From Anthoceros angustus (Eukaryota; Plantae; Anthocerotophyta), in the NCBI GenBank assembly GCA_010909165.1, contig MU008165.1, positions 1,116,001-1,180,000 of the forward strand: DNA of 64,000 bases, written 5' to 3'. The translations under genes were made by a program, and so were the position numbers. This document shows, one piece after another, positions 11,501-49,956 of this stretch. Positions within the stretch are counted from its first letter, which is position 1. Each line of letters begins with the position of its first letter. Below the pieces are notes generated by a model. That model saw nothing but the letters and a program-made list of their open reading frames with translations. It was not told the DNA's origin and did no database searches.

Positions 11501-11624
11501 TACCTTGGGCCACTTATGCCCCAGTAGCCAAATTTGCCACACTTCGAATGATATTTGCTTTATGTGCCCAACATGATCTTGAACTCCATATGATGGATGT
11601 TAAGACAACATATTTGTATGGGCG
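8583..11624 (+). pseudogene. Copia B gag-pol (gag, zinc knuckle, protease, integrase, RT N-terminus), frameshifted; continues at 34107-34270
   Basis: gag KEKDRFNGRDYDIW; CNWC...HMEKDC knuckle ~9435-9480; protease WYL.SGATSHIC ~9595; integrase YWAEALLTATYLMNRLPT; RT KWVFKIKRKGDGSIERYKARLVARGFTQ...MDVKTTYLYG. Confidence 0.9.
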
Positions 11625-11899
11625 AACAAGGTCTCCTTAGGACTGGTGACGGCTCCTGGTCACTAGTTGGAAGGGTGTACACCGGGTCGAAAGGTATACA
11701 AAAGCCACCCAAAACCATGTTTTCTGATTTCATTAAAAAAACCCCTAAACCTAGGAGCAAATCATAGAGGATCTGTTTTCCGTATTTGTATGTCCTCATC
11801 TCATATTAGTTTGGCTAACCAGTACATTGCCTATAAACGCGATTTGAAAATCGGGGCAATTTGTATGGACAACAAAAATACAAAAGCAGCGCAATGGAA

Positions 11900-12780: not shown

Positions 12781-12904
12781 TCCACCAGACCGTGTTCGTT
12801 GTCTAGAGTGCTCCGGGGACCTTGCGCTGATGTGTTTGTTGTGTTCATAGCACCTTGCATGCACGTTCTACCACGTGCGAGATACCACCGGGCTCGGTGC
12901 CAGA

Positions 12905-14505
12905 CCGGTTCCTCCTACCGTAATCCTCGAAACAAACACGTAGCCTATCCCGTCCGCGACACACCTCGATCGTGAGCAAAGTTTTCCAATCCTACATCCC
13001 CCATCATCAAGCACACGGAGGTGCTCTTCCCTCCTTCACTTGCTCCGCATCCCCAAGGACCATTGAGTTGTCGCTGGCTTCACCACATGCCATATGACCC
13101 TTGGTCTCGGGCTTCCTCGTTGGTCTCGCTTCAACGACACATATGAACCCCGGCACCGGCCATGTTGTTCACCATGGGCTCCTTATTGAACGTCTTTCCG
13201 CCTCCATAGCCGCTCCTCGCCCACCTCCTCCTCTTCCGTCGGTGTCCATGGAATTGATTCAAGGTCCATGAATTGAGCGCACAGGATCCACATCAGAAAT
13301 GACATTACGGCATAAGCGAGCAATGCTATCATACGACCGATCCTGCGCACCGTCCCAATCTCCCTCATCAGGTGAATCAACCTCTTCAAGAGTCTTAGGG
13401 GCTTCGATAGGGGAAACAACCCGATCATCCGCGGTGTTGTAACACAATTTTAGTTCCACGCGTTCGGCAAACAGTTGTCACTCCACCGCCAAGTTGCGTC
13501 GGTTCTCGAGCACAAGCGGTTGAGGCACACAATCCTTATCCAAGCTCCTGCGGGCGCAAGTGAAAAGTCCACGCATCGTCGGCTGTCCTCGACAATCTTT
13601 GTCACATTGGTTTTATGCCGGTAACATGTAAATCACGGCACCCCACACGCTTCCATCGACTTCTCTAACCATAGATGTGTCATCCGAGAATGGAAGACCA
13701 CACCGGTCCTCCTACCATCCTCGAAACAAACACGTAGCCTATCATCCACGCGACACACCTCGATGAAGCAAAGTTTTCCAATCCTACATCCCCACCACAT
13801 CAAGCACACCCGGAGGAGGTGCTCTTGCCTCCTTCACTTGCTCCGCATCCCCAAGGACCATTGAGTTGTCTGCCGGTGCTTCACCACTTGCCATATGACC
13901 CTTGGTCTCGGGCTTCCTCGTTGGTCTCAACGACACATATGAACCCCACCATGTTGTTCACCATGGGCTCCTTATTGAACGTCTTTCCGCCTCCATAGCG
14001 CTCCTCGCCCACCTCCTCCTCTTAGTCGGCCGGTGTCCATGGAATTGATTCAAGGTCCATGAATTGAGCGCACTGGGATCCACATCAGAAATGACATTAC
14101 GGCATAAGCGAGCATGCTATCATACGACCCCGATCCTGCCCAGACCCAATCTCCCTCATGTCAATGAATCAACCTCTTCAAGAGTCTTAGGGGCTTCGAT
14201 AGGGGAAACAACCCGATCATCCGCAGTGTTGTAACACAATTTTAGTTCCACTGCTCGTTCGGCAAACACAGTTGTCACTCCACCGCCAAGTTGCGTCGGT
14301 TCTCTGAGCACAAACGGTTGAGGCACACAATCCTTATCCAAGCTCCCTGCGGCGCAAGTGAAAAAGTCCCCTGCATCGTACAGCCTGTCCTCTGACAATG
14401 CTGTCACATTGGTTTTATGCCAGTAACATGTCGTCACAGCACCCCTGCACGCTTCCATCAGCACTTCTCTAACCATAGATGTGTCATCCGAGAATGGAAG
14501 ACCAC
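12905..14505. repeat. Tandem near-duplicate (~795 bp; ~12905-13700 and ~13700-14505) covering the C-terminal part of the methyltransferase
   Basis: Same sequence twice with complementary indels; junction at short AGACC microhomology; probably a consensus artefact. Confidence 0.8.
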
Positions 14506-14760
14506 AATCGAAATACAGGATGTGGTGATGCCTTTGAAGCGCATGATGACCCCTTCAAACTCGCCTTGGTAAATCTTGTGTCATACTCGTGATTGGGGAT
14601 CTAGATCCAAGCCTCGGGAGGTCTAACAACAACAAAGCATACGGTCGGGGCTCTACAAACCGGGCCATGTTCACTATGTTCCCACACATATCCCGACCTT
14701 CTTTGGGTTTTTCGGCTTGGAGTCGTTCACGATTGTCATCGCTTATCCTCGGTGTGGTCG
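13183..14760 (-). pseudogene. Beta-class N6-adenine/N4-cytosine DNA methyltransferase (N6_N4_Mtase-like), frameshifted in this assembly, transposon cargo
   Basis: Motifs in beta-class order: GI.CGNIVNMARFVEPRPYALLLLDLP[x]GLD (catalytic motif IV, 14623-14615); IVVFHS; CYWHKTN (~14427-14410); SPIE-KPLRLLKRLIH; EGDWV.DG.AGSGS..IAC...RNVIS.DVDP (SAM-binding motifs I-II, readable by combining the two duplicated copies). Confidence 0.72.
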
Positions 14761-15491
14761 ATTTCAAGGCACGTTGCGACTCCTCCATCGCTTCCAAGCT
14801 CGGCCTTGAATATGTGCTCCTTGAAGTTCTCGGTAGGGCACCCCACTCAAGGCAAGTGTTGGCACGCAGACATGAAAGACACATCCCACCGTCAAATGCA
14901 ACGTTCTACCGTTCGAATGTATGCGGTGAATGCCTCCACTTTCCATGACTTATAAGGACAAGAAGCGACAAGAGAGAAACTACGATTTGGGTATAGCTAA
15001 GTGTTCATCGAGGACCCACAGTTTTTGAAGGCGGTGGAAGTTACTAATTTGATTCACCATGCGATGTCGGGATATCGTTCTGAACCTCTTCAAATGTCTC
15101 ACAGTGCAAATGCTTGGCCAGTGTAACATGGATGAGGTTGAGTTTTTTGGCCTTGTCCACCCACGAACATTTGTTTCAATGTCAATTCTCGGCCGGGACT
15201 TTCATGCATGTCTTCAAGTTGTTGTTCCAGTGCGGGCTCGATGCCTGAAACACTTCCATACCCTCACCGTATACTAAGCTCCTTTGTGTCAATGACCAAG
15301 TTTGCTCTAACTGCTGTTGTCTTCCTTGAATTCCTGCGGGCCTTTATTTGTTTAGTGAGCCGGCCTTCCACTGCTCGCAACTGTTTGTCTCCCACTTCTC
15401 AAAGATTTCATCCACGTACTTCCACACCTCATCATCAACCTTCGCAACACAATAATCCGGTCCGGTTATCCACGAGGCGGTGATAGTGACC

Positions 15492-16050
15492 TTAGGTCCA
15501 TGCTTGGTGCATCCCACTTAGGAACCACCTTGACCGGGCATATATCTCCAACTTCCAGTCTAAGTCACACTTCAGCCCATCAGCTAGCCTGGCCTTCATC
15601 TCAGTTCTGATGTACCTCACACGGTCGATGAAAGTAAAAGTCTTCCTGGCATCCGCAATGGTGTTGTGATCAGTGGCAACTAACCTCATCTCCTCATTTG
15701 TGAGGCCAGCAAGAACATATGCATCCATCCACCTGTACTCTTGAACCAATGGATACAAGTCGGCTAGTCTAGATCTGGCCTGGAAGGAATGATTCCCTCC
15801 CAATACATAAAATTTGTACACCCCCCGATCCACCTTATCCATGTCAAAGAAGTTCTTGTTGGGACACTGGGCCGGGTCTACAATGACAATCATGGGCACA
15901 CACACCACCACGTGGAATGCTTCATCTTTTGCATCAAAGCCTCCACCCAAGCCGAGTCTAGCTTACGTACCTTGCCAACCGACATAGTTCTTGGAGGTCT
16001 ACAACCTGATGGACAGCTTTAACGTGGACTCCCATACTCTCTTTTCCATA
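15492..16050 (-). CDS. ParB/Sulfiredoxin-like domain, transposon cargo; probably the same polypeptide or transcript as the methyltransferase
   Basis: VRKLDSAWVEALMQKM...PMIVIVD...FYVLGGNHSFQARSRL...AYVLAGLTNEEMRLVATDHN matches the ParB N-domain pattern R.ld..v..L..s...PiiV...y.v.dG.HR..A.......N (ORF 15492-15950 plus upstream frame). Confidence 0.7.
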
Positions 16051-16829
16051 ATTGCCTCCCTCGCAACATCTCTCGCCTCGGCCCTCGTCGTAGCTTTGTC
16101 GTCATCCGTGGCTACTGCATCCTTGGCCTTCTCTATGAACTTTGGGAGCTCTTGCCCCTCTCGGACATCATGTGCCATTCGTTGCTTCGCGCCTTGTTGA
16201 CCTTCCCACCCGCCCCCTCCACGATTGCACTCTCAATCCCTTCCCTCTTTTCCTCGATTGTCTACCCCGCGGGTGTGGCTTGAACCCTTCGCGTGCCATG
16301 GGAGACCCAAATCCCGGTCCGTTGCATCCACCTCGCCCCATCGTCATCTTCCACGTCTTCGTCGGGGCTGGATATGATCCACCGGCCTCGGGCCATCGGC
16401 CGAATGCCATCGCCAAACCCCTCATTGTCCTGGTCCCCACCCGCATCCTCATCTTCGTCTTCGTCGGCTAGAGAGGTTAGGGTGACATCATCGCTGACCA
16501 TGGGCTAGGAAAAACCAGCGGCTCGGTGGGCGGACTGTTGCTTGGACTCAAGCACCGGACGTCCGTGGCGCAACCCCTCTTACCAGAAGCTTTCATTTCG
16601 CAAACTAGTTCTTTGAAGCGTGTCCGAATTATATTTTGTGCCACCACCTTTTGTTGCGGTTTCACTTGGCGCGCGGTCATGCATATCGATGGCGGTTGCC
16701 AGACGCTGCATGGATTTACTGATCCCATTAGCACTAGGAGTTGCCATTTGATTTCCACTCGGCGAGATGCCATGCTAGGGGCCTTCTCGCAGCAGATGCC
16801 CTTTCGATGTAAGCAATGCATCATCCGCA

Positions 16830-17180
16830 CACCTTCTAAACATTGCTGGTGCAAAGCCTTGTGGAAGACACGATGTCCATCACCGTGTCGCAATGCCTCA
16901 AAGTTCTTGCCTTTTCCGCTCGTTGGCACGCCACAATGTCAAAGTTCTTCACCGCAACCTTGTATACTCTAATCCATTGCGGGTCCGGAAGAGGCTCCTT
17001 GTGCTTGAGCGGATCGCAATATGACGTACACACCGCTCATCCTTCATGGTAGCGTGAAAACAAGCGCTCCCGCACATTTCTTTTGGCTGGTGTGGTTCGC
17101 ATCATCCTCCATCGACACATACAAGAAGAGCAAGTCTTGATTGGGTCATTTGACCTCCAACTTCTCTTTGTAATGTCAAA
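16830..17180 (-). pseudogene. Possible trihelix/Myb-SANT-like DNA-binding domain at the N-terminus of the cargo protein
   Basis: K[W*]PNQDLLFLYVSMEDD...MKDER...SYC...QWIR.YKVAVKNFDIV...SGKGKNFEAL...VFHKALHQQ resembles plant trihelix domains; an acidic linker (DEDEDED, 16262-16501) separates it from the ParB domain. Confidence 0.35.
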
Positions 17181-19928
17181 TGGCGAGATCATCTTGTACA
17201 TCCGTGGATCAAGTCAATATCGGACCGCTTGTAAGGACTCGGAAAGATGCCTTGGTCGGCGGATGCTCTTGTGGAAAGACCCGCATCGGTGGCGCAGATT
17301 TGAGTTGTCCTTGGAGTCCGGGTGGTCCGGGCTCGTCGCCTCGTTCAAGGCCTGTGAGTCTGTACCCTTCCGTCGCGCCTTTTTTTCTCCACCGGAGCGT
17401 CCTGCGATTTGTTGGAGTCATTCTTCCGCTTCGAGCCCTTCGGAGGAGCCATTCTGTATGCAACTATGAAAGAAGTGAGATCACAGAAGTGTTTAGATTG
17501 TTAAAAGCTGATACCTGCATGAGCTGCAACTTCTCAGAACACGGGACAGTCTGTGTGCAAGCGGGAGTTGACAGAAGTTGATGCTCACAGACGACTAGCC
17601 CAGCCTGCTGCACCCTCGAGAGCAACAGAATTGCACGCTGCTGATGAGGAGGTCGACAGTGTCCTGATATCTGCAGCTGCCGGCCTGCCCGCTGATGGAC
17701 AAAGTGCGGGTGAGTGTGAGAACGACCCGTTTTCTCCAGTCCGCGGCAATCTCTTGCTTTTCCGCCCACACATAAGCTAGATGGAAATACACATCTTCCC
17801 GCCAAAGCGAGAATGAATCTATACCATCCAGAAAGGGGAAGGTGGGGTCGCTGTGCCTTCATGAAGGAAGACACAGGGCAGGCAGGCTCTGTAATCAAGC
17901 AACTCCTTAAATGCTTTGTCGCCGGCGACCGTGTTTTGCCATTGTCCCGGCTAATGTGGCAAATGCAATATTGAGCATATTCTAAGGTATATGCTAGTTA
18001 TGCCACGGCTAAAATAGTGTTCAGCGGTGGCATAACGATGGGCACCTAGAGTGATTCAGCATCCACCGACTAGCAGCTGTACACAGCCGCCGTTTCCTAC
18101 CAGCCGCAAAGTGGGCACCTCGACTTCATTGCCAGCATTTAGTGCGAAGGCTTATTTCGAGCCCGGTGTATCGAGTCTTGCGCATCCACTTCTCATCCAC
18201 CTTGCGCATCCCTCCTCCTCCCGGGCGTCCGCGCCCGTGAGAGCAATAAAGCGTGTTCGATTTTGCAAATTTCGGGCGGGTCGGATGCATGTCATTCGAA
18301 GGTGGCCATGAGTCGGCGACTCAATTGTTGATCTCAGATGCGCGCACAAGCGTCGTAGTTTTAGAGGATGATTCACGCTATGGCGGCGCGTGAGCATAGT
18401 CCTTGAAGAGACACGGTGGCGGACTTCAGCGGTGGAAGCGATGGCGATGTGCGTGTTCCGAGATATGGAGGGCGGAGGATATGGTTGCGGCGATGGGGAC
18501 CTTTTGCATGCGATCCGTGCGATGCGAGGCGGAGAGGATCGCACAAGAGGCTCGTGCGGGCGTTTAACCGGATGTCCGGTGCTCGGACGCAGCGCCGCGC
18601 GAGGCCCGCCGTGTGCCACCACGAGGCGGCACGGCACCATCCATCCGGACTTCTTGGATCACCGATGGCGGCGCATCGCGAAGATGTACCTGTTGGCGCA
18701 TTTGGGCAAAACCGGATAACACCGGACGCCCGCCGGCGACAAGGTCGGCCCTCCGGCGGATCGTGGGGGTCCGAATACTATCGAGAATGTGCTACCGGTG
18801 GGAACAGGCAAGACTACGATGTGGAGAGTGTTGCGAGTCTCCGGACTTTGGTGAGAAGATCCACATTGTTGATTTTGGGCTTGGCTTGGAAACAATATCG
18901 CCGGGTGATGGCGGAGTTGCAAATCTTGGGAGTCGTCAAGAGCTAATGTGGTCCGTGGTCCCGGATCTTTGTTTGGTGATTGTGATGCCATCCGTTGGAG
19001 TTGCACGAGATGATGCCTCGCGCATCCGAGCCAAAGGTGAGGATCTGCGTGCAACGAGCAGCGTTGCCAAGCGTAAAGTACCTCCGGCCAGAGCTAGAAT
19101 GGATTTGGTCTTAGAGAAGCATTGTTCCAGGGCCAAGTTGTGCGCCGATTTAAAGCGGCATTGTTGTGACAAAAAATGTTTAGAGCGTGTTGGCCATTCG
19201 AAATTGAAGGTGATTCGTGTAGCATTCTTCCGCATGACAAAAGGAGAGCAGGAACAGCATTTGCAAGACCATCTGGATCTGATCGAAGACGAAGAGGAGT
19301 TGTTGCCCATAGTATGGATAAACCGGATTCCACATGGGAAGAAAGCAGTGTGTGTGAGGGCTTTTACAGCCGGGTTTTACGCATTGGGTCACTAAGATAC
19401 AAGAATGCAAACCGGTAGTGAAAAATGTTAGATGGACCGTAGGCTACGGTCTCAAAGCGCCAACGCCATATGGATTACACGTCATGTGGATGGGCGTTTT
19501 CTTCAAAGGCGGAAGGCGCGAATCGGGAAGTCTTCAACTTGCCGACTGTGTACAGAGAGATCTTCATTGAGTATGCGAGCGAAACGGTCGTGTGCTCCAC
19601 GTTTATTCTGACTACTTTTGCAAGCTTTGGATGAAGTATTTCCGGGCTGTTAAAATACCACGGTGCAACCGGTTTTCAGTCTGTGCAGACTGCGATGACC
19701 TAAAGAGGAAAATAAAAGACGCAGGTGTGGAGTGTAACCTTGTGTCTAGGGACACCGTGAGGTCCACATTCACCCTCAATGTCGTTGTAGGCTTAGGATT
19801 CGCTCCCAAGGGAATGGTTTGTGCCAAGAGACGCTAACTTCTATCGCTCACGGCCTTAAGTCGTGACTACTGCACTCCTCTTACCTATCTACTCAACTAC
19901 TACCTCCCGACTTGTCCAACTACCACGA

Positions 19929-19997
19929 TCTTATTCCACGACCACAAATCTTATTCCACGACCACAAATCTTATTCCACGACCAATCTTATTCCACG
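19929..19997 (+). repeat. 20-bp tandem repeat (TCTTATTCCACGACCACAAA, ~3.5 units) inside the LTR; counterpart at ~26981-27045
   Basis: Directly visible in both LTR copies. Confidence 0.85.
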
Positions 19998-22900
19998 ACG
20001 CGGTGGCTCTCACCACTCGGGTGGTTGCTTACAGTGGGTCCCACGCCAAACCCTAGCGACTTATTTGGCGCCTGGCGCCCGCGGATCCGCAGGCGGCTAC
20101 CGTACCTGGATCGGACTTTATTCTGCACTCCACACTTCATGCACACACACACGATTCCTAGGGACCAAAGTTCCACAAATCCCTCACCGCTTCACACACA
20201 CACAAAGGCGCCACTCACACAATTCCACAAGGGGCAGCTTTTCCTCTTGTGCACACTTCCATGACCGGTTTGGATTCTTTTGGATCCACACAAATCTCCA
20301 TTAGTTTCTCAATTAGTTCTCCTTCTCAACTCCTCTTACACCTCGCATCGCGTCTGATTATTCGATCACTCCTTCACCCAATCTTCTCTCTCTCTCTCTC
20401 TCCCCCTCGGGCTTCCAACCATCCACTCAACACTTCTCTCTCAATTTGAACACAACTTCGCGGAACAAGGGTGAAGGAAAGAAGAACCCCAGGCGTCCTG
20501 GCGGGCGTTACGAGCAAGCTCCGGACCGCCCGCGCCAATCCCTTGGTTTCCTCCTCCTTTGTCGGCCAAGATTGCTCTATCACCCCTCCTCCCCGGTTGC
20601 GCAAGCTCGACCACCCCTAGGAGGCGTCTCGCGCACACCACCTCTCAATCGGACGTCTCCAACCAGCCACAGGCGTGGGGATCTCAACCAGAGTTATCTC
20701 GATGTGAGGGGGCAACCAAGCCCCTTTATACAATTCTTTTGGGCGTCATAGCCACCGGACTTTCAGTCCTAAAAGGTGAGCGAAGGCGCCCCTACAATTT
20801 CGGACGGCCTTAGGTCCAAGATGGCATCCTATCCAAAGTTCTATTCCTAGGATGCCACTACTCCCTGCCCATGTTATCTCCTCCCCTCCGATTTGGTCGC
20901 TTTGGCCCTTCGTCCTTCTTGCTGAATTTATGGGTCCTCCTTCCTCGTTCTTTGATCGGAAAATCCTCCCATAAACTCTCCTTTGTTTTCCATGATCCCA
21001 AGTCCCGGCTCCCTCACCAATCCTCCACCTCGGACCCTCAATGGTCCATATTTGGCCATTAGGCGTCAAAATTTCAGCAACCTTGGGCGCCATGCTCTGC
21101 AAAACCCTCACGCCCACGCCTCTTGCTGATAACTCGCCTCGAATCTCCAATCCCCAGGTTTCTTCCTTCCAGAATCGCGAGCTCCGCCGCCACGGGCACG
21201 CCCTTCTGACCTCGTGCGAGCTCGTGCCTGTCGAGATGCAGGAGCTACCCAGCCGCCCGCGCCGTGCCTTTCGAGTTCCCTTAGGGTTATATTTCCCGAA
21301 ACTCGCCTCGGCTTCGCTACCACTTCTTCTTCGACCGCTCCTTCCTTCCACGACCGCCCGGTTCGCCGTCTTGAAACATAGTCCCGGTCGGCGACCACAC
21401 AGTTCAACTCGCCGGTTGGTTCGACCTCTAGCCTACGGACCTCGCCAAATATGGGGACCCCCATATATAGGCCTTTTATTAAATATTCCAAGACCAAAGG
21501 CCAAGGAGTATCGAGTTCATAGTCCAAGGACCGATTATTATTTAACCCGAAACAACCCCAAAACTCATAGGCCAAGGACACTTTCTACTATAAATATCCC
21601 TTCCTACTCATAACCTAGCTCTTCTTGACACCAAACTTAAAAAAACAAAAATCACTCAAAGACACAATCCAACGAGTTTCCAATACGGATCGTTTACATA
21701 CTCCCTTCTCATTTGTTGGCGCCCTCGCCAACTCATGTAATATTTCTTGACTCTCCAACCGTTGATTTGGTTGGTAGTCATCTAGTTGGGTATGGAGCCA
21801 TTTGCGAAAACTTCAAGGACTTTATATGGCCCCATCCATGAAGGTGAAGCTTGCCTCGAAAGTGCATATATCTGTTGTCATATGGTAGGTCCAAGTCACG
21901 GTACCACCCACAACCTTTCTCTTCCGTCCGGTCCCTCGATATAAAAGTCTGTGGCGGACAAATGGACTCGAATAATGCCGAGGCATCTTTGTTGTTGCCT
22001 TGAAAGGTCAGGGGATCTTTGCCCAATTCAGAACTCAAATATTTACGAATAAGTAGGCTGTGTATCCGGATCTCCCTTCTCATTCTTGCCGTACCATCAC
22101 TTGCCGTCTTCCGATTACGCGGGCCGCTTCCCCTCCATCTCGCCCGAACAACGCTTCGCCGGGAGCAACTTCCACATCCGTCCCACCACCTTCCACTCGT
22201 TCCACCTTCCACTACCCGTAGTACCTTCCACACGGTCACGATCAGCTGTCACTCCATAACAACCCACGGTGATGGGTGGGAATGTCTCTTGATAGTCCCG
22301 CTCTTCATCCGACCAAGAAATGTGGGCAAAGAACTTCTCTTTCTCATCCTCCTCCCCAAATGTGTCTTCTCTGGAGGTATAGCCATACTTTTGTGGCGTC
22401 TCTCCTGCGTCGTATCTCGACTCCAAGATAAACATATCCTCCTTCCTTAACCTTGGGGTCCCAGTCCAGGTTTGAAGCCCACTTCCTTCCTTGCCCACTT
22501 GAAGGTACAGTGCCCCATACATCCACGTCCGCCAATCAAAGCGTCATATCCGGGAGCTTTACGTTTGATGACCACATAGTCCATAAGGTGCGGAATGGTA
22601 CCAATATGGGTTAGAACTCCATCGGCTCCCCACGGTGTCATCTGGACATGTCCGAGCGACCTTGGATGTGTGTTCTATCTCCAGCTTAAGTGTGTCCTCC
22701 GTCATGATGTTGACCCCGGACCCGAATCCGAGGTACTTTCTTGATAACATCCCGAGATTTCTATCTGCAGCTCGCGGGACCTTGGTCACCATGGCCACCA
22801 TGTTCACAGCAAGGGGCCTCGGCCTTGTTTTGGGAAGGTGCCTCTTCTTGGGTTGTCTGCCTTCAATGCCGGATCTGTGGCGGTACCTCGGATTGTCCAC

Positions 22901-23504
22901 GAGAATTGTCCAAATGTTATCATGAATTTTTGGTCCATGATGGCCTCCAGATTGAAAGGGCCATTCAGCTGTGTTCTCCCCTTCTCAGCGCTTGCTCCCA
23001 CTCCCGTTTCAGCAACCGCGGTAGCTCCCACAGGTGTCGCGGTCGGAGCGAGATGGCGGTTGGGTTGGGTGGGCGGTAGTGGGAGGTGTGGTGGTGTGCA
23101 TTCTTCCTCGGATCATCTCCATGACTTCCTTTCCGACATCTGGCGGAAACCCTAACTCATCCTTTTTCCTTTTTCGGATCTCGCGATTCGATTCTACCCC
23201 ATCGGCTCCCTCCTTCGCGTCATCCCTCGAATCCCGGGTTCACTAAAGTTACACGTGGTGCCAAAATCGCAATGTGGCGCGTATTGTGGCGTTGCCCGTG
23301 CCTCCCCTCCGGATTCGGCTGCCCCTCGACCCCTCATGGGGCTTTTTTTTGGACCCCTTCCTTCCCCGATGAAGCGACTTCCTCCTCACTCCGATGTTGG
23401 GGCTCCCAATCTTCCTTCTTTCTTTTCTTCCCCGTTCTCCCCTTAGGGTGTCGCCTTCCTCCGCTCCGGCGTTCGACGACCATGGGGTTTCATAGTACCC
23501 CCAT

Positions 23505-26500
23505 GTCCTCCAATCCTCAAACTTCTCAACATGTTGGCCTCGGAATCCTCCCATACGCCATGAGCGCGTCTTGACTTGCATCACAGGGATTTTGCTCCAT
23601 GGGTGGGTGGGTTGCGTAGGGGTTGAGCAATCCTCACATGTTTCTTGATGAGAGGACCGCCGCTACGTGCCGATTGCTTGCAATCCACACGACCTCTCAA
23701 AATCACCATTCCTGGCGAGATGCGGAGGGCACGCAAGATGCGAACCCTCGGCAATTGTAACCGAATGGCACTCATTTGCGGGGTTCCTTGCCATCGATTG
23801 CGAATGCCCATGTTTGGAGTTTCGTAAACTTGAGGGTATAAAGTCTTGGTACCAGTGGTGTCGCCTCTTGAATTTGGTATGTATCTTCCAAGCACATCTC
23901 CTCCTCCTCTTCCTCGTAGCCAGATTTGCACCTTTGTTTGTGGACGATTCGACCTCGAGTGCCCTACATCCACAAGTTGAGCGAAGAGATTCGCCCGCTC
24001 CGTGTACCCTTCTCCTCTATCGTGGTCTTGATGGCATTAAGATGGAGTTTCTCCGGTTTGACCATCATTTCCTCCATCTTGTTCCTTGTTGCTCCACCTT
24101 TTTGGCTGCTGTTTCCACCTCTCTTCTCACACTCCGCGTCCTTCTTTGCATATAGCTCCTTTCCTCACGCGTCTTGTTTCCCACTCATTTTTCTTCCTTC
24201 TTTCTCTCCCCTTGACGCTCATCTCACGAATCTTCCTCGAATCCTCTGGTCTCTTCTTGGTGGAACTATCAGGAGTCGAGAGCTATCTTCCTCCGTGGGC
24301 TGTCATCGGAGGATGAGTAGTACTTCTTCTTCTTGGATTTCTTCTTGTCCCATCCCTTCTTGATTTCTTCTTCCTTCCGCATTGGACTCCTCGTAGTTCA
24401 GGCGGCCTTGATCGCCGATCCAAGTCTTTCTCGGCTTGGGCGTCGTGCTTCCCATCTCCGCCAACCTCTTGCGACCGTGAATGGCCTTAATTCGGTGAGG
24501 TCCCCGATCCGCAGTGGAACCTTTCCACATAAGCTGCGGTCTCCTTCTTCCCTCTCCGCAATCCCTCGAGTTTGGACAAGACATATCCTTCCACATCCTC
24601 ACGAACCTTTCACAAAAGCTCTCTTCAAGGCCCCAAAGGTAGGGGGTGTGGAAGAAGCTATATACTCGTTTGTACCACTTGGCCGCTCATAAGACTCCAT
24701 AAAACAGTGGGCACGTTGCGCATCCTCTGGTTGTGGCGTCGGTGCTCAAAGCAGCTCGACAAACTCGTCGGGATCCTCATGGCCCTTCTTCTCTCCAGCG
24801 GGTAAGATTGCTTAGTGGTAACAACTCGGAGTAGTAGTCATAGCTACCGTGGTAGTACTTTCAGCAGCTAGATGGCGGATACAACTACCCGTCTGACTTT
24901 CCACCCAAAGTTTGGTGAGGCGATAGGCAATGCGGAGCGAGATCAAAAGCGGGGTCGGGTTGGGGTACACAGGCCCTTGTACGTAGCCGAGTTGGGAATC
25001 GTCGATAAGATCCCTAATTCCGGTCTCCTCATAGTACCACATCCATGTCCTCCAATCCTCAAACTTCTCGGCATATGCCTCGGAATCCTCCCATACGCCA
25101 TGAGCGCGTCTTGACTTGCATCACGTAGCATTTTGCTCCATGGGTGGGTGGGTTGCGTAAGGGGTTGAGCAATCCTCACATGTTCTTGATCGGAGAACCG
25201 CCCACATGGCGCTTGCAATCCACACGACCTCTCAAAATCACCATTCCTGGCGAGATGCGGAGGCACTGGCAAGATGCGAACCCTCGGCAATTGTAACCGA
25301 ATGGCACTCATTTGCGGGGTTCCTTGCCATCGATTGCGAATGCCCATATGTTTGGAGTTTCGTAAACTTGAGGGTATAAAGTCTTGGTGCCATGGTGTCG
25401 CCTCTTGAATTTGGTATGTATCTTCCAAGCACATCTCCTCCTCCTCTTCCTCGTAGCCAGCGGTTGCACCTTTGTTTGTGGACGATTCGACCTCGAGTGC
25501 CCTCGTCACAAGTTGAGCGAGAAGAGATTAGCCCGCGCTCCGTACTTCTCTCTCGTGGTCTTTTATGGCATTGAGATGAAGTTTCTCCCATCATTTCCTC
25601 CATCTTGTTCCTTGTTGCTCCACCTTTTTGGCTGTTTCCACCTCTCTTCTCACTGCTCCGCGTCCTTCTTTGCATATACAGCTCCTTTCCTCCGCGCGTC
25701 TTGTTTATTCGTTTCCTTCTTTCTCTCCCCTTCGCTCATCTCGTGAATCTTCCTCCGAGCTATCCTTGGTCTCTTCTTCCGTGGAACTATCCGAGTCTGT
25801 GAGGAGCTATCTTCCTCCGTGGAACCATCGGAGGATGAGTAGTACTTCTTCTTCTTCTTGGATTTCTTCTTGTCCTTATCCCTTCTTGATTTCTTTTCCC
25901 GCATTGGACTCCTCGTAGTTCAGGCGGCCTTGATCGCCGATCCAAGTCTTTCTCGGCTTGAGGCGTGTCTTCCCATCTCCGCCCAACCTCTTGCGAACCA
26001 GCGGATTGCCATTAACTCAGTGAGGTCCCCGATCCGTGGTGTGGAACCTTTCCACATAAGCTGCGGTCTCCTTCTTCCCTCTCCAATCCCTCGAGTTTGG
26101 ACAAGACATATCCTTCCACATCGACCCCTCACCTTTCACAAAAGCTCTCTTCAAGGCCCCAAAGGTGGCTGGGGGTGTGGAAGAAGCTATATACTCTCGT
26201 TTGTACCACTTGGCCGCTCCGCTAAGACTCCATAGAACGTGGGCACGTTGCGCATCCTCACGGTTGTGGCGTCGGTGCTCAAAGCAGCTCGACAAACTCG
26301 TCAGGATCCTCATGGCCCCTCTTCTCTCCATACAGGTAAGATTGCTTAGTGGTAACAACTCGGAGTAGTAGTCATAGCTACCGTGGTAGTACTTTCAGCT
26401 GAGTAGCGATACAACTACCCGTCATGCTTCCACGCAAGTTTGTTGGGTCGGCAACTGAGGCGGAGATTGAAAGGCGGTGGGTTGGGGTACACAGGCCCTT

Positions 26501-26520
26501 GTACCTTCCGTGGCGAGTTG
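23505..26520. repeat. Tandem near-duplicate (~1.5 kb; ~23505-25000 and ~25045-26520) inside the Athila-like element
   Basis: Same gag-region sequence twice with scattered indels. Confidence 0.8.
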
Positions 26521-29500
26521 GGAATCGTCGGATAGGTCCGATCCCTCAATTCCGGTGACTCGTCCCTCCTCGTCCGGCAGTGTCTCCCCGCCTCCTCGTA
26601 ACTCTCTGCAATCTTTCCTGCTTGGCGTTGTCGCTTGCGAGCGTTTCCCCAGTCGGATCGAGTCGCTTGTCTCCCGAGGCATCCATCTATCAATCTAGTA
26701 ATGCTAGACTCTCTACTTAGGCTATGGTTAGTTCTACCTCGTCCCAGCGATTTCATTCCCGACAGCGCCAAAATGTGGAGTGTGAATTGTGTCTAGGGAC
26801 ACCGTGAGGTCCACATTCACCCTCAATGTCGTTGTAGGCTTAGGATTCGCTCCCAAGGGAATGGTTTGTGCCGAGGCGCTAACTTCTATCGCTCGACCTT
26901 CTAAGTCGGGACTTACTGCTATTACTCCTCTTACCTATCTACTCAACTACTACTACCTCCCGACTTGTCTAACTACCACATCTTATTCCACGACCACAAA
27001 TCTTATTCCACGACCAAATCTTATTCGAGCAAATCTTATTCCACACGGTGGCTCTCACCACTACCGGGTAGTTGCTTTACACCGAGGTGGGTCCCACGCC
27101 AAACCCTAGCGACTTATTTCCGGCGCCGGCGCGGATCCGCAGGCGGCTACCTGCCGCAGATCGGACTTTGCACTCCACACTTCATGCACACACACGATTC
27201 CTAGGGACCAAAGTTCCACAAATCCCTCACCGCTTCACACACACACAAAGGCGCCACACTCACACAATTTTACAAGGAACTGTTTCTCTTGTGCACTTCC
27301 CCACTTGACCGGTTTGGATTCTTTTGGATCCACACAAATCTCCTTAGTCTCTCAATTAGTTCCCTTCTCAACTCCTCTTACACCTCGCGCGTCTGATTAT
27401 TCATCCTCCTTCACCCAATCTTCTCTCTCTCTCTCCCTCAATTCGCCTCAGCTTCCAACCATCCACTCAACACTTCTCTCTCAATTTGAACACAACTACG
27501 GACAAGGGTGAAGGAAAGAAGAACCCCAGGCGTCACGGCGGGCGTTGAGCAAGCTCCAGACCGCCGCCAATCCCTTGGTTTCCTCCTCCTTTGTCGGCAA
27601 GATTGCTCTATCACCCCTCCTCCCCGGTTGCGGAGCAAGCTCGACCACCCCTAGGGCGTCTCGCGCACACCACCTCATCAATCGGACGTCTCCAACCAGC
27701 CACAGGCGTGGGGATCTCAACCGAGTTATCTCGATGTGAGGCACTGGCCTTTTATACAATTCTTTGGGCGTCATAGCCACCAGACTTTCCAGGTCCTAAA
27801 AACGGCTGAACGCGAAGAGGCGCCCCTACAATTTCGGACGGCCTTAGGTCCAGGATGGCATCCTATCCAAAGTTCTATTCCTAGGATGCCACTACTCCCT
27901 GCCCATGTTATCTCCGCACTCCCCCTCCGATTTGGTCGCCTGGCCCTTCGTCCTTTGCTGCTGAATTTATGGGTCCTCCTTCCTCGTTGCTGATCTGGAA
28001 AATCCTCCCATAAACTCTCCACTGTTTTTCCATGATCCCAAGTCCCAGCTCCCTCACCAATCCTCCACCTCGGACCCTCCAATGGTCCATATTTGGCCAT
28101 TAGGCGTCAAATTTCGCTGCAACCTTGGGCGCCATGCTCTGCAAAACCCTCACGCCCACGCCTCAATTGCTGATAACTCGCCTCGAATCTCCAACTTGGT
28201 CAATCCCCGGGTTTCTTCCTTCCAGAATCGCGAGCTCCCGCCGCCACGGGGCTGCCCTTCTGACCTCGTGCGAGCTCGTGCCACCGGGATCTGGAGCTAC
28301 CACCCAGCCGCCGTGCCTTTCAAGTTCCCTTAGGGTTATATTTCCCGGAAACTCTCGCCTGCTTCGCTACCACTTCTTCTTCCGCGCTCCTTCCTTCCAC
28401 GACCGACGGTTCGTAGCTTGAAACATAGTCCCGATCGGCGACCACACACCGGTTCAACTACCGCGGTTGGTTCGACCTCTAGCCTACGGACCTCGCCAAA
28501 TATGGGGACCCCCCCATATATAGGCCTTTTATTAAATATTCCAAGACCAAAGGCCAAGGAGTATCGAGTTCATAGTCCAAGGACCGATTATTATTTAACC
28601 CGAAACAACCCCAAAACTCATAGGCCAAGGACACTTTCTACTATAAATATCCCTTCCTACTCATAACCTAGCTCTTCTTGACACCAAACTTAACAAAAAA
28701 AACAAAAAATCACTCAAAGACACAATCCAACAGGGAGTTTCCAATACCAGATCGTTTACAGCAGGGTCGGATCACGTACAAGGTGAGATGGCGGTCCTTA
28801 TTCCGGGCAGGTCACCGGATGTCCCGCGCCGAACTTTGGCGCAACCCCATGGCCTCACACCCTTTTCTTGCGAATGAAGGGCAGGGCTTGAAACAAACCG
28901 TGTGCACATTGTCGACCCTTATTGTTGCAGTGCAGACAAGAATGTGGAGCTGACTCCAAGAGAACAACAAGGGCGCGAAAATGGCGGCACCGGCACAAGT
29001 GCTAGGCGGCTAAGTTCATTGGTATTGCCATAGATGGTATGGACCAAAAAACAGAGTTGCCCCATTACAGATTGCCAAAGACGGTTGATTAGGAGCCCTT
29101 GTCGGGCTTCACGTTCTAGGTGTGCTGGTGTTCAACTACTTGGTGCGCAGTGTATTTGAGTTTCCGAATGTGAGAAATGATCCGAATGGAATCAGCCGTG
29201 ATTCAAGATGTTATCAATACCGGAGGGGCCTCTATTCTATACTTGCGGATGGACAACATGCTCAAAACAAGAATCGGAGGTATTGGCATATCATCCATGC
29301 TTGTGGCGAAAGGTATCTTCAAAAATCAAGGTGGGGTTTCTTCTTGTTGGCCATACCCACGATCGATTGACCAAATGTTTTCGAGGTTCGGTTGTGCTAG
29401 GGTTGAAGGATGCTTTCACATTGCCGAAATGATAGGGTTCTTTGAGCGGGCGTACACCCCATCACCGATTCACATCTTGAAGGAGGTGCGGACTTCAAGA

Positions 29501-32500
29501 CCTATCTATGGCCGAAAGGGGATCGTCGCAACGACTTGCATAATCACGATTTTCAACACAGTTCAAAATAACAAGGAGAAGCTGCTCGGAGGGGCGTGGC
29601 GTGCTAAGATGCAAGGAGTTTTCAAGTTCGATCCGTCACCGGAGGGTGGTGTGCGCTATTACGTTCGGTGCCACCACGGGTGATTGTGGCGACTCCATTG
29701 TTGCCGTTGGTCCCATCACATGCCCAAGGTAAAGGAAAGGGACATGCAAAGCGGAAGGATGCCCCGATGTCGTCGATGACGATAGTCTCAAGCGATGGCG
29801 GTAGTGGTAGTGTAGTGGCGGAGTCCATGAAGTAAAAGCGGGCCTAGAACGCACCGGCGACATATGAATGTGGAGCAACTAGCATGGTGGGATACGTTGG
29901 GATGAGCAGTAGCAATAGCCGAGAGACTAGCGGTGGCATTCCATTCCGTTGGAGCAGAATGGTCTTGGTACACTCGCGATGAAGAAAAGCGAGGTACCAC
30001 CAGACCCTCCGGACTCAACTTTGGTTGATCCGCAATGGCAGACGGATTTTTGGACATGGTGGAGGTGTACAGGGCACATCAAGTGCGGAGGGAGGGCAAG
30101 GCGAGGCTCGGTCGAGAGGTTGTGTGAAGGAGATTGAGGAGGGAATGATGGTTGTCAAGGCTGGGATGATCCAGGGCGACCATTCGCTCGCAAAAGTGGT
30201 GGAGGTGGACCATGATCGGGGTCCCTTTCATGATAGTTCATTGGTGGCGGACGAGAGAACAACAACGAAGGGCCGAAATGGCGGCACCGGCACAAGTGCT
30301 TGGGCGGCTAAGTTCATTGGTATTGCCATAGATGGTATGGACCAAAAAAGCGAGTTGCCCCATTCGCATTGCCAAAGGCGGTTGATTAGGAGCCCTTGTC
30401 GGGCTTCACGTTCTAGGTGTCTTTGGTGTTCAACTACTTGGTGCGCACAGTGTATTTGAGTTTCGAATGTGAGAAATGATCCGAAATGTAGCCGTGATTG
30501 ACATGTTATCAATGGAGGGCGCTCCCCTATTCTATACTTGCGGATGGACAACACGGCTCAAAACAAGAATCGGAGGTATTGGCATATCATCCATGCTTGT
30601 GGCGAAAGGTATCTTCAAAAATCAAGGTGGGGTTTCTTCTTGTTGGCCATACCCACGATCGATTGACCAAATGTTTTCGAGGTTCTCGGTTGTGCTAGGG
30701 TTGAAGGATGCTTTCACATTGCCGAAATGATAGGGTTCTTTGGGCGGGCGTACACCCCATCACCGATTCACATCTTGAAGGAGGTGCGGACTTCAAGACC
30801 TATCTATGGCCGAAGGGGATCGTCGCAGCGTATGACTTGCATAATCACGATTTTCAACACCAGTTCAAAATAACAAGGGAGAAGCTATCGAGAGGGCGTG
30901 GCGTGCTAAGATGCAAGGAGTTTTCAAGTTCGATCCTTTGGTCACCGGAGGGTGGTGTGCGCTATTACGTTCGAGGTGCCACCACGGGTGATTGTGGCGA
31001 CTCCATTGTTGCCGTTGGTCCCATCACATGCCCAAGGTAAAGGAAAGGGACATGCAAAGCGGAAGGATGCCCCTGTCGATGGCGATAGTCTCAAGCGATG
31101 GCGGTAGTGGTAGTGTAGTGGCGGAGTCCATGAAGTAAGCGGGCCTAGAACGCACAGCGACATATGAATGTGGAGCAACTAGCATGGTGGGATACGTTAG
31201 GATGAGCAGTAGCAATAGCCGAGACTAGCATGGCATTCCATTCCGTTGGAGCAGAATGGTCTTGGTACACTCGCGATGAAGCGAGGTACCACAGACCCTC
31301 AACTTTGGTTGATCCTGCAATGGCAGTTTGGACATGGTGGAGGTGTACAGGGCACATCAAGTGCGGAGGGAGGGCAAGGCGAGGCTCGGTCGGAGGTTGT
31401 GTGAAGGAGATTGAGGAGGGAATGATGGTTCTGTCAAGGCGGGATGATCGGGCGAGACCATTACGGCTCGCAAAAGTGGTGGAGGTGGACCATGATCTTG
31501 GGGTCCCTTTCATGATAGTTCATTGGTGGCGGACGAGAACAATGATGCATTCGAGGGAAGGTACATGGAGGAGTTTGTGATACTGGGCGCCCACGGTCGA
31601 GGGAAAAAGTGCGGCGATCAAAGAATGGAGGCGAGGGCGGAGAAGCATTTGCAAAGCCTCAACTTCCGAGACAAATGTGCTGGCCTATGATTTGTGACAA
31701 GGAACAAGACGCGTTGCAGAGGACGACAATGAAGCTGATAAAGACTAAAGTCTTTGAGTTGCGTTCAGAGCCGGCTGATGAGCCGGCGAGGCTTCCGCCA
31801 GCTGACACGAATGTCATGCCCGAAGACATGATTGACTCGGAAGACCTCGACAATGTGGAATCAACGGATGAGTCCACAGACGTGGTGGTGGACCCGCTGG
31901 ATGGTCTGGACTCTGGAGAGGAGCCGGACAGTAGGCCACCTAATATTGTCAACTTCCCAGTTCCTTGTACCAGGAACGTTATGTCCCCTCGGGCTTGAAT
32001 GCAGTGGATTGTTTTCGTCTTTTCGTGGAAAGGTTTAACTTGCCACCGGCATCATCTGTTGTAGGAAGTTGACGGTGTGATAATGTCCGGAGCATGTAAC
32101 GGCGACTATGTCGAAACAGATCCGGCAATGTGGTGCTCTAATTTTCTAACAATGTTCGTGGTTTTGTCCGATTGAGAGTAGCGGCGAGGTTTCAATGGTG
32201 ATCATGCAGTCATCTATGTTCGACCTTGCGGTGTGGCGAAGTGTTCCCAGGATGGTCACGCCAGGATGTCCGTGGCAAGGTATGTATGCCGCAGCAAGTG
32301 CGGCAATGTTTGTTTTCGGTTCTAGTTGGGACCGCCCTAATGACTATGGGGTGGAACGGACGGGGTCGATCTCGGCGGTGGCGATTCGAGACGGACGCAG
32401 CGTAAACGGAGTACACAAGACGGGCTCAAAAGCAGCGTCTTCCTCCACTGCTTCCACCGCCAGAGGTTGTCTTCCACCTCCTTTGTGGTTTGTGCACGCG

Positions 32501-34414
32501 CTCATCCCCTCCTCTGGCGGAGCCGTCCTCACGCCATGCTCCTCCACCTCCTTCCGACCTCGGTGCGGGTTTTGCCTGTTGATGTCGCCTCCTCCTTACG
32601 TCCCATCCATCCAACCTTCCTTGAACTAACCTGCTGTTTGCAGCCCTTCCGGATGAGGACTCGCGGAGGTGGCTACGAGTCACCACCTCGTATCACAAGG
32701 GAGGATGTGGAGGCAAAGCGGCGAGGCGGAGAAGGATGGAAGTTGCCCATCCAGGACTTGTGTGGAGGCCATTTGGGTCTCCATGCGGCGTGGGCGGGGA
32801 AAGGCTATGGGCTGGCCATCTCCTTCCATGCGGAGGGTGGCGGTGGCATCGTAGATTTTCCGGATCTTTGCGAGGTAGGAAAAAGCCAAGGGGTGGAAGA
32901 GGACTATAGGATAGCGAAGGAGGGGTTCTGGAGGCGAACGAAGGGTGCAGCAACTCCAGCCCGTCAGGAGGAAGGAGGGTGAAGGAAGAGCACGAGGACT
33001 GTCCGGTCCAGAATTGTTTAAAGCTTCCGTGACCTTACTGCCGTGAGTCCATGCGACTTACGAATGAAGGTTGCTGCAGAGGAGGCATCGCCTTGGGAGG
33101 CGGGGAGTGGAAGTGAAGGAGGAGGCGGTAAGCACTTACCTTTACCCCAGAGTTGAGCATGGTTGTCGCATGCACTAACGGGCTGTTCATTGTGGCGAGC
33201 AGTGATGGGGACACCCTTGGCAAACCGGAGGAGCACTTGGAGATAGGGCGTGAAGTGGGTTACCTAGGTTTTTTGCAAGCGATCTAGACTAGGCGGGGCG
33301 GGAGGGGAAGAAAGGGAGGGAGAGGGGTTGGATGCGTAGCTTTCTCGTGGCTTGGGGTCGAGTTGGGGACGGTCACATGATTTTGTGTATGTCAAGTTTT
33401 AGCGTCGATGTGCAAGCCATGTGCGAAGTGTGAAGGAAGCAACGGGGTTTGAGTTTGGGGAATGCACGATTCGAATGTTTTGTCCGTCACGGACAGGTGG
33501 CTATGAGCCAAGCGGTCAATGTCACATGGCATGGACTAGAGGCGGTTACATGTGAACTACACCATAGCGGTTTTCCAATACTTTATTAGCGAGAAATGTA
33601 TTCATCGGCATATACTTTGTACCTTGGGGATGTATATTTGAATAATATTATTCCATGTATTTTACATGAATAACCCTAAGGCCCACAAAGCAGTGAGCCG
33701 CTAGTGATGCATTCGTCCAATTGTGTAACATGACGGTGTACACTTTTCCATATGCCGGTTGTAAAGGTAGCTTTGGTCGTAATGTATCCCAAAAGTGACA
33801 CGATTGAAATAAAGCCTAAATAAATGTTCTAGTCTGCACGCCATAAATTTATAAGGATCTCTACTTTTTCTCCCGAATGCCTCTTTTGTTTAACCATGAG
33901 ACATCGAGGTGTGGAAATATTGCCAATAAATTTCAAGTTTTGATGAAGTGGAATGGGTTTGGGTGTCTTGCGTTGTATTTTTAGCAGCCGTTTCCCACAA
34001 ACCCTCAAAATCAACGTTCCGAGTTTTCTTAAGTGCAAATTTTGATGACATATTTGGCCCGTCCCCGGAAAGTGGAGTGTGTCACTAGCCCTAAGGAGAC
34101 CCTGTTGGCGCCTGCAAGAGGAAATATACATGAGACAACCCGAGGGTTACGAAGTCAAAGACAAAGAAGATTGGGTATGCCAACTCATCAAAGGTTTGTA
34201 TGGCCTTAAGCGAGCGAAGAATTGGAATTTAACCATACATGTACAACTTATTGGGAGAGGATTTAAGCAAAGCCGGTCAAAGACTTGTATGTCCTAATCA
34301 AACCAATTCCACTTTGCGGGCGTAGATGGGTGTCGGAGGCCAAGTTATCTAGGGCAAATGACTAACAAAAAGAAGTCGCCTGCAATTCGCTGGAGGAACT
34401 TGTCAGGAGATTAA

Positions 34415-41377: not shown

Positions 41378-42292
41378 CTGATTATCTCACTCCATTTCCC
41401 ATTCCTGCTTCTCGTGTTCCTTCAGTTGAACCTATTCTGCAGGAGGAGGAGGAGTTAGCATCCATTCCACAACCTGATACAATTCAACGATTTAACTCGA
41501 TGTTGACATCCCACAGAGGTGCGGTTGACACTCATGATGATGAGTTTGATGACCCTCGGAGGATGACATTGTGGAGCCGCAGATCTCGTTGATCCCGCCT
41601 CGTGGATGATGCACACGCACAAAGGTACAACCTCGGATCCCGACCTACCATTTCAGTCCTAGAGGTTGGAAGGAACCTCCTTTAGGATACCTAGCTGTAT
41701 TTGATGACCCTATTCCCCACATATCACTTTATTCTCAAGTCGTATACAAGGCAACTATAGACCCGGAAGAATCTCTTACCTTAAAACAAGCTTTCTCTTC
41801 TCACGAAAAGACTTATGGAAGGTAGTCAGACTCGAATATAATTCCCTAGTTGATAACTCTACATGTGAATTGGTCAAGCCACCTAGGGGTAGGAAGATAG
41901 TAACCAGCAAATGGGTATTCAAAATTAAAAGAAGAGGAGATGGTTCTATAGAAAGGTAAAAAGCACGTCTAGTAGCCAGAGGCTTTACACAAATTCGTGG
42001 TCTAGATTACATACCTTGGGCCACTTATGCCCCAGTAGCCAAATTTGCCACACTTTGAATGATATTTGCTTTATGTGCCCAACATGATCTTGAACTCCAT
42101 ATGATGGATGTTAAGACAACATATTTGTATGGACGCAGAGGAAATATACATGAGACAACCCGAGGTTCTGAAGTCAAAGACAAAGAAGATTGGGTATGCC
42201 AACTCATCAAAGGTTTGTATGGCCTTAAGCGAGGCAAGAATTGGAATTTAACCATACATGTACAACTTATTGGGAGAGGATTTAAGCAAAGC

Positions 42293-48898: not shown

Positions 48899-49613
48899 TT
48901 ATTCAGGTGAGGGGATGGCCAACTTTGAAGTGTCTGACCATCCCCTCACTTTGGTGGCCTGTACAGGTGCGGGTGCAGTGGAGGAAGCGGGAGAGAAGAA
49001 AAGGGGGAATAAGGATGGAAAGGAGAAAGAGTCAAATTTGCGCTCTCGATTAGTTTTACTTGCATGCTTACAGGTTGTGCTTCTGAATGCAGGATTCTTG
49101 AGCAATTCGGGCTTGAGCAACATGACCAACTTGTAGTCCAAGTGCGCAATTTGTTCCTTCAAATCCTGTAAGTCGATGCTTGCTGTAGAGACATGTCCAC
49201 TGATTTGACTGCAGCGTCTATCCATAAGTCTGTTGTTTGCCTCAATTGCGTTGAACGATTGTGCTCACACCTGTCTGTGTGGCAGCTTGAGAAGTGATGA
49301 AACCACAGGGCTGCCCGTTTCCATCAAAAGCTCGTTGTACGCGCACTTCCGGCAATTGTTGTGGATTTCTAGGAGGGGAAGTGAAAATCAGATCCAACTC
49401 CTTAAGATAAAGCGCTTCAATAAGTGTATTGAACGCATCTTTTAGATTGGCAATTTGCATGGGTTGAGTTTGACTTCTATAGCTCCATGCTAGGACGCCT
49501 TGATGTAGCTGAGATGCTATTGCCAGCCTATCAGTGACTCTAAACCTATTCTGCCTAGGGATCTGATCAGCAGGGCGCTGACGCCTCTGCTGGTGGCCAT
49601 TTACATTGGCCAT
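48899..49613 (-). pseudogene. Extra ORF after the PBS of element E (two frames, 49242-49613 and 48899-49225)
   Basis: MANVNGHQQRRQR...; RCSQISGHVSTASIDLQDLKEQIAHLDYKLVMLLKPE resembles the upstream ORFs of B and C. Confidence 0.5.
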
Positions 49614-49956
49614 GATTTAGAGGATCTTGTAAGATGCAGAATTTCTGCATCTTTTGTTTTCTTTATATAATTTCTACATATGATTCTGCCGACTAGGCAG
49701 CTGTTCTAGTGTGCTTCCGTTGAATTGCTCTGAGTATCAATTCAAGGGAAGTGCACTAGAATTTCTACCTGATAATGCAGAATCTATATGGATTTATCAA
49801 AAGAAAAACAGCATAAAAATATTTCTTGAATATCTTCTATTTCTTGAATTTTGACTTAATTTCAAAACAAGAAAACAATCAAAAGATATCATTGTGCACA
49901 TTTTCAGATGCACAATTTAATGTGAATTCATTTGAATGCAATCTACATTAATCAGT

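Follow-up and report, generated by a model that had tools for sequence, protein, structure and literature searches.

A frameshifted ParB-like methyltransferase gene as probable cargo of a likely Sola1-like DNA transposon in Anthoceros angustus

Can a methyltransferase gene that no single reading frame reveals be recognized in a plant genome, and if so, what carries it? This question arose from a 64,000-nucleotide stretch of Anthoceros angustus DNA (assembly GCA_010909165.1, contig MU008165.1, positions 1,116,001 to 1,180,000 of the forward strand), referred to here as the window. The window resembles an error-prone long-read assembly, in which long ORFs are rare in the repeats. A first-pass annotation, made from the letters alone, had proposed that a beta-class amino-methyltransferase (MTase) is hidden there by frameshifts and that two duplicated copies of it complement each other. 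Judged from its sequence, the MTase domain is real. We conclude that it is very probably part of a ParB-like plus beta-class MTase gene borne as cargo by a transposon.

As the first-pass annotation had stated, no single ORF shows the MTase. None of the 34 fragments matched a Pfam MTase model, and Pfam ParB models likewise found no match to the window's single-frame fragments. A homolog search with the MTase fragment of the window yielded 0 matches among 162 candidates, and profile comparisons of two single-frame MTase fragments gave weak agreement (E 2.8e-4 and 8.1e-4). Because the single-frame fragments gave no MTase match, the search was begun from an upstream 156-aa ORF at 15495-15962. From the relatives we built an MTase profile of 230 columns out of 13 MTase-domain slices, none of which had been found via the window's MTase. 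A frameshift-aware alignment of this profile to 14659-14160 on the minus strand scored 53.8 bits with 5 frameshifts; the highest score among 40 shuffles was 18.5, and the other 83 of 84 window tiles reached no more than 22.6.

The motifs lie on the minus strand where they had been placed and in beta-class order: D-L-P at 14623, W-x-K-x-N at 14422, K-P at 14196, E-G-D-W at 14157, and R-N-V-I-S at 14101, with motif IV thus N-terminal to the motif I region (14623, then 14157). The alignment spans from before motif IV to just past K-P, and over this part it bears out the proposed motif array; motif I lies beyond its end and did not gain the same backing. Because the alignment stops just after K-P, motif I was read by eye. 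The reading D-G-x-A-G-S-G-S was assembled across the copies, with A-G-S-G-S in one and D-G in the other, and by eye neither shows the whole of the hydrophobic strand before the motif I Asp.

The MTase is the C-terminal half of a minus-strand gene at ~16115-14070, which is a fusion of ParB-like, helical and beta-class MTase parts (Table 1). A full-length profile of relatives aligned collinearly from 16115 to ~14190 with 351.8 bits, 19 frameshifts and 0 stops, while 8 shuffles gave at most 25.1 bits; because the profile includes proteins found via the window's ParB ORF, the ParB share of this score is not independent. The relatives P0001 and P0069, otherwise identical, diverge at the position of the 174-nt gap in the alignment, and both P0020 and P0083 terminate only a few residues from it. 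From this we infer a conserved intron, and ParB and MTase are therefore probably one spliced gene. Upstream, the stretch 16116..17452 had no Pfam match above the cut-off; the Cys-rich, coding-like part of it at 16500-17452 (minus strand) gave a weak hint of a GATA zinc finger (E 0.028).

Table 1. Features of the inserted element and its cargo gene, in window coordinates.
Feature	Position	Strand	Evidence
Left TSD (GGCG)	11621..11624	.	Site comparison
Left TIR, 26 bp, starts AACA	11625..11650	+	23/26 match with right TIR
Partial tandem repeat of the MTase, comprising its 3' half and tail; possibly an assembly artefact	12900..13702	-	89% identity
Beta-class amino-methyltransferase domain, frameshifted; motif IV D-L-P-x-G at 14623, motif I region ~14157	14070..14700	-	
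174-nt gap in the alignment, probably intronic (one or two introns)	14847..15020	-	Donor-like GTGGGT at 15019; pyrimidine tract and AG at 14949
Helical middle region	15021..15500	-	HMM matches collinear with relatives
ParB/sulfiredoxin-like N-terminal domain (predicted), G-G-N-H at 15800	15495..16115	-	68 relatives; relative's model
Unassigned; perhaps an N-terminal extension, perhaps an accessory gene of its own; from a possible ATG start at 17452 it runs Lys-rich, Cys-rich and finally acidic	16116..17452	-	
Transposase-like gene, 5' part, Cys-rich	18568..19725	+	By eye and position; no Pfam match
Nested LTR retroelement, ~2-kb LTRs, TG...CA ends, 5-bp TSD GCAGG	19726..28760	-	Repeat and TSD analysis
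Transposase-like gene, 3' part (DUF7869)	28766..31900, end approximate	+	PF25273 fragment matches
Right TIR, ends TGTT	34081..34106	-	Pairs with left TIR
Right TSD (GGCG); Copia RT gene resumes beyond	34107..34110	.	Site comparison

The 156-aa ParB ORF has 68 relatives among 1.84 billion representatives, and its Atlas lead was a ParB_N cluster at 0.92, with the family in 35% of members. A second search, from the relative P0027, returned 13 proteins; Chara braunii is the named source of 11. Named relatives (30 proteins looked up by cluster) come from Chara braunii, Adiantum nelumboides, Riccia sorocarpa and Ginkgo. PF01555 was detected in 5 of 30 relatives scanned, with hits in Chara, Adiantum, Ginkgo and JGI proteins and none in the Riccia or animal ones scanned; many of the 25 relatives with no match are partial gene models. 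In a tree of 62 ParB-like domains, rooted at the midpoint only, the window's domain joins three Logan proteins (98/85) and stands away from those of Chara. Two metagenome scans confirmed no locus of a relative. The ParB-like domain is also shared by the animal proteins P0049, P0063, P0064 and P0047 (Exaiptasia, Ptychodera, Mytilus and Saccoglossus). PF01555 had no match in the three animal ParB-domain proteins scanned, and the animal proteins are possibly derived forms in animal transposons.

Among 89 stored proteins, motif IV was matched in 16 (DFPY 7, DFPC 4, DAPY 2, DALY 1, DIPH 1, DFLY 1). Its first residue is Asp in every match and Ser or Asn in none, and D-x-P-Y is kept in nine of the 16, with the other seven departing from it. 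The motif I pattern D-x-[FC]-[SA]-G-[ST]-G is kept in 9 matches, in distant hosts. Outside the eukaryotes, the nearest matches among the 25 of 574 records listed are phage MTases, annotated from PHROGs, at 23-29% identity.

The fold was tested on the intact relative P0027 (19-row alignment; mean pLDDT 65.9, pTM 0.37) rather than on the window's product. In this model, the C-terminal domain is predicted to adopt a permuted Rossmann fold, matching CcrM with Z 22.6 (rmsd 3.5, 222 aligned), and Foldseek agreed on the MTase fold. M.RsrI and M.MboII had been suggested earlier as the enzymes for comparison; the model matches M.RsrI at Z 18.8 and M.MboIIA at Z 21.2, along with M.BceJIV (21.6), M1.HpyAVI (20.1), PvuII (19.3) and N4CMT (18.8). 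Thus, family membership and the fold of P0027 together uphold the assignment to the beta-class amino-MTases. Residues ~100-234 of P0027 gave modest matches to PadC (Z 9.3, rmsd 2.5, 95 aligned), Srx (Z 8.5) and KorB (Z 8.2), and the model places the N-terminal domain of this relative within the ParB/sulfiredoxin fold. The G-G-N-H motif presumably occupies the position of the ParB arginine patch.

The idea that the duplicated copies complement each other did not survive for motif IV. The duplication (12900-13702 / 13698-14506) covers only sequence downstream of 14506, and because the tandem copy starts there, motif IV at 14623 is single-copy and is not complemented. The two copies differ by 39 indels versus 21 substitutions, and the second copy alone scores 15.9 bits, within its own shuffle range (maximum 16.6). 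We lean towards regarding this copy as an assembly stutter. Four head-to-tail duplications of 0.8-1.5 kb are present in four different TE genes of the window (12900-14506, 23490-26556, 28959-31538 and 34984-37057). They are 87-92% identical with indels at CWG, the LTR pair is similar at 89%, and the four duplications are probably assembly stutter.

Across five repeat pairs, indels exceed substitutions 1.4 to 2.7 fold. CWG is touched by 116 of the 306 indel events between repeat copies, a ratio of 5.6 to background, while the ratio for the other nine triplet classes is at most 1.7. Substitutions between CTG and CCG were dropped as evidence of error; because CpG deamination yields the same change, indels alone were counted. 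Nanopore consensus errors in bacteria concentrate at methylated CCWGG, according to the accessible text of PMC6591954, and the literature searched held no plant report of such errors at methylated CHG. Since the indels cluster at CWG sites, most of the frameshifts are probably nanopore-type errors at methylated CWG. Within the gene the signal is weak and counts against this reading, with only 9 of the 19 frameshifts at CHG (background 31%). Because the CWG error pattern implies 5mC methylation, this copy of the element is probably 5mC-methylated and hence silenced despite its cargo. We also observed that CHG observed/expected is ~0.5-0.8 in 1-34000 versus ~0.8-1.2 in 36000-64000; the lower values in the first half fit miscalling or deamination in methylated repeats.

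The first-pass annotation had held that activity cannot be judged, and this was correct: the fourth residue of motif IV falls on the break at 14614. We examined this site in the read run X1, which covers 0.13 of words and possibly stems from the source sample, so that it lacks independence; we did not read copy number from its depths. Over 14500-14800, the run gave 55 short contigs with 15 indel and 5 substitution variants, which include different insertions at one site and look like noisy reads. Of the 8 contigs listed out of 55, the one with the greatest depth across motif IV (94.8) carries the same broken reading as the window. Other forms carry one additional base (29.5) or lack one more base (49.8), the latter being in frame without a fourth residue. 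None of the X1 variants listed (12 of the 15 indels) restores a full codon at the 14614 break. With deletion alone, the three read forms fit A/H/L/P/Q/R/S/T, while Tyr needs an additional miscall. The read variants fit His or Gln better than Tyr as the fourth motif IV residue, and the catalytic aromatic residue may be absent in this lineage.

The gene lies, in a setting that the first-pass annotation had not recognized, within an insert of 22,482 bp (11625-34106), on either side of which a Copia RT gene breaks at 11620 and resumes at 34111. An uninterrupted, empty-site paralog of the insertion target is present in the same window at 42070-42200. The insert ends in 26-bp TIRs, 23 of 26 positions matching, a score reached by 0 of 20000 random window pairs; its termini are AACA at the left and TGTT at the right, and both are flanked by the 4-bp TSD GGCG. 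We also weighed by eye longer TIRs flanked by a TSD of only 2 bp, but these agree less well with the empty-site paralog. The element is likely a cut-and-paste DNA transposon of a non-flowering plant, a lineage to which the named relatives, the probable intron and the CHG pattern also point. Three non-retroelement stretches of it were scanned and contained no parS-like repeat array. A 17-bp inverted repeat with a 6-nt spacer (17997-18036) lies between the two divergent genes, as a binding site or by chance.

Divergent from the ParB-MTase gene, on the plus strand, is a transposase-like gene. Frame fragments of its 3' part matched PF25273 (DUF7869) with E values of 4.9e-5 and 1.3e-4, which do not reach the curated cut-off, and this part includes one of the head-to-tail duplications (28959-30256 / 30254-31538). 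We take DUF7869 to be linked to Sola1 transposases. The Atlas gave no usable match for the transposase fragment. The gene is split by a nested LTR element of 9,035 bp, by eye of Gypsy type, and because of this split the present copy is probably non-autonomous. Without the nested element and the two tandem copies, the transposon would measure ~11.3 kb. By eye, the tails of both element genes (12850-13000, minus; 31200-31580, plus) are small-beta-barrel-like, presumably resembling beta-barrel reader domains, with a Tudor-like tail at 12850-13000. No Pfam or PDB match was found for these tails.

With its TIRs and 4-bp TSD the element agrees with Sola1, and it is likely a Sola1-like DNA transposon. 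Its target differs from the AWWT TSD described for insect Sola1 elements in the accessible text of PMC3845634, as judged from one site only, GGCG, in noisy sequence. Because of this difference, and because no transposase tree was possible, we use the label Sola1-like only.

Elsewhere, the window shows nesting in three levels at 8565-37057 (LTR element within TIR element within Copia RT gene), with readable TSDs for both inner elements, and it also holds Copia gag/RT pieces. Host genes are present as well: an SRA-preSET-SET gene of the SUVH type (57121-58707, plus), a PCI-domain gene (~58474-60629, minus) that overlaps the 3' end of the former, and a mini-RNase III gene (61356-62195, plus). Their ORFs are long and unbroken compared with those of the TE genes. 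Complex near-identical repeats (92-99%) surround them at 49593-56656 and 60618-64000, reflecting either segmental duplication or misassembly.

The ParB-MTase architecture and layout are already in print for brown and red algae; the comparisons here draw on the accessible text of the papers cited. Sola1-1_Ec32 of Ectocarpus is 21.5 kb long, with AACCG-CGGTT termini, a 4-bp TSD said only to end preferentially in A, and a Physcomitrella Sola1 transposase as its best match; it carries a 1104-aa ParB-like plus N4/N6 MTase protein on the strand opposite the transposase, for which its authors propose self-modification, without a test in that text (PMC12477816). Compared by layout, the present element shares with it the giant TIR form, the 4-bp TSD, the AAC...GTT ends and a ParB-MTase opposite the transposase. 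The TIRs differ in length, however (282 bp in Sola1-1_Ec32, 26 bp in the present element), a nested LTR element makes up 9 kb here, unlike in Sola1-1_Ec32, and the host there is a brown alga without cytosine methylation whereas here it is probably a CHG-methylating plant. Iyer et al. 2011 is reportedly the work that the Ectocarpus paper cites for similar proteins.

In red algae, Plavaka PAG2/PAG3 likewise travel as cargo of DNA transposons and encode a PF01555 methylase and a ParB-like domain, but two genes are involved in that case, one joining the methylase to SET and the other joining ParB to a 2OG oxygenase, whereas here a single gene holds both. Those elements are of EnSpm/Plavaka type with inverted-repeat arrays, and no array was seen in the non-retroelement stretches scanned here; self-modification is proposed for them as well, without a test in the accessible text of the Bostrychia paper (bioRxiv 10.1101/2025.02.11.637652). 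Closer to land plants, hypothetical proteins of Chara (CBR_g41648-type), Adiantum (L7F22_065550) and Ginkgo (Gb_37443) have the same ParB-like, helical and PF01555 parts and a D-x-P-x-G motif IV; they are known from database annotation only, and the window's ParB domain groups elsewhere (98/85). With CcrM, M.BceJIV, M.MboIIA, M1.HpyAVI and M.RsrI, the family has the fold and the IV-before-I order in common. It differs from these N6A MTases in that D-P-P-Y is replaced by D-[FLAI]-P-[YCH], in its ParB-like fusion, and in that no restriction partner was seen in the element.

Marchantia MpDN4MT1 and rotifer N4CMT are likewise prokaryotic-type beta-class amino-MTases in eukaryotes, but both belong to the host, carry S-P-P-Y and produce 4mC, the former without extra domains and the latter with a chromodomain (PMC8885841). 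DAM-LTRs embody a comparable strategy, in which a TE employs an adenine MTase of prokaryote-like type, but they are retrotransposons with DAM domains; they are reported to show higher 6mA and transcription and to be absent from Streptophyta, and neither 'ParB' nor 'Sola' occurs in the accessible text (bioRxiv 10.64898/2026.05.21.726589). The accessible text of PMC4738411 describes no ParB-MTase clade in land plants, and we found no description of a land-plant ParB-MTase transposon in the literature searched, which left aside most subscription papers, Repbase and bioRxiv supplements.

What might such a gene do for its element? Taking as the basis what was observed directly (the motif order, the family, the TIRs and TSD, the insertion in the Copia RT gene, and the orientation opposite the DUF7869-type gene), we favor, as reasonably probable on the whole, a Sola1-like element whose cargo ParB-MTase binds the element's own DNA, adds 6mA and resists silencing. 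In such a scheme, the protein would engage its own DNA via the ParB-like and helical parts and would methylate an exocyclic amine, probably adenine N6. This N6-methyladenine would likely help the element resist host silencing, and the methylation would keep intact copies expressed or tune transposition. The probable silencing of the present copy, the departures from D-x-P-Y among relatives and the lack of a parS-like array in the stretches scanned weigh against this scheme. That self-marking with 6mA is the function of the ParB-MTase family we put forward tentatively, as a possibility that falls somewhat short of being favored.

The weightiest alternative is that the same cargo gene encodes an MTase that is catalytically dead or decayed, serving as a DNA-binding accessory only or persisting as a fossil amplified with the element. 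This would accord with the read forms, which favor a non-Tyr residue or none at motif IV, with the DFPC, DIPH, DALY and DFLY variants among relatives, with the degenerate motif I in both copies, and with the 25 of 30 scanned relatives that lack a PF01555 match, even though many of those are partial gene models. Furthermore, DIRS-borne MTase domains are called likely inactive in the accessible text of PMC4738411. Nevertheless, we consider it fairly unlikely, given 0 stop codons on an aligned path of ~1.9 kb and the retention, in distant hosts, of both D-x-P-Y and the motif I pattern.

An active enzyme could instead write N4-methylcytosine, thereby occupying the cytosines targeted by the host 5mC machinery. 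The domain has repeatedly switched between 6mA and 4mC specificity (PMC8885841, accessible text), a liverwort already uses a beta-class 4mC enzyme, and the N4C enzymes PvuII and N4CMT match P0027 nearly as well as the others, within ~4 Z of the top structural match. The base modified would nonetheless be adenine on our reading, as the first-pass annotation had reasonably leaned, for which the Asp-first motif IV is only a hint from sequence: S-P-P-Y occurs in none of the 16 motif IV matches, and the four best structural matches as well as the best sequence matches are N6A enzymes, so that a 4mC writer seems distinctly improbable. Hardly credible is a domesticated host gene or a bacterial contaminant in place of transposon cargo. 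The phage MTases found as nearest non-eukaryotic matches, among those listed, would suit such an origin, but the gene sits within TIRs and a TSD inside the Copia RT gene, it has a probable intron, and its labelled relatives are eukaryotic.

Returning to the cargo ParB-MTase of a Sola1-like element, a broader proposal is that a transposon family ranging from Chara via liverworts and ferns to Ginkgo bears an active, ParB-guided MTase that marks the family's own copies with 6mA or 4mC; at present we regard this as rather doubtful. Enzymatic 6mA in plants is disputed, and a transposon-borne beta-class amino-MTase in an apparently CHG-methylating plant is a concrete candidate writer, for which the intact relatives P0027 and P0070 exist. 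The locus also illustrates how long-read errors linked to methylation can keep TE cargo genes from being annotated. If the proposal is true, land plants, which are thought to be without abundant 6mA, would gain a TE-restricted, non-5mC mark used as an anti-silencing device.
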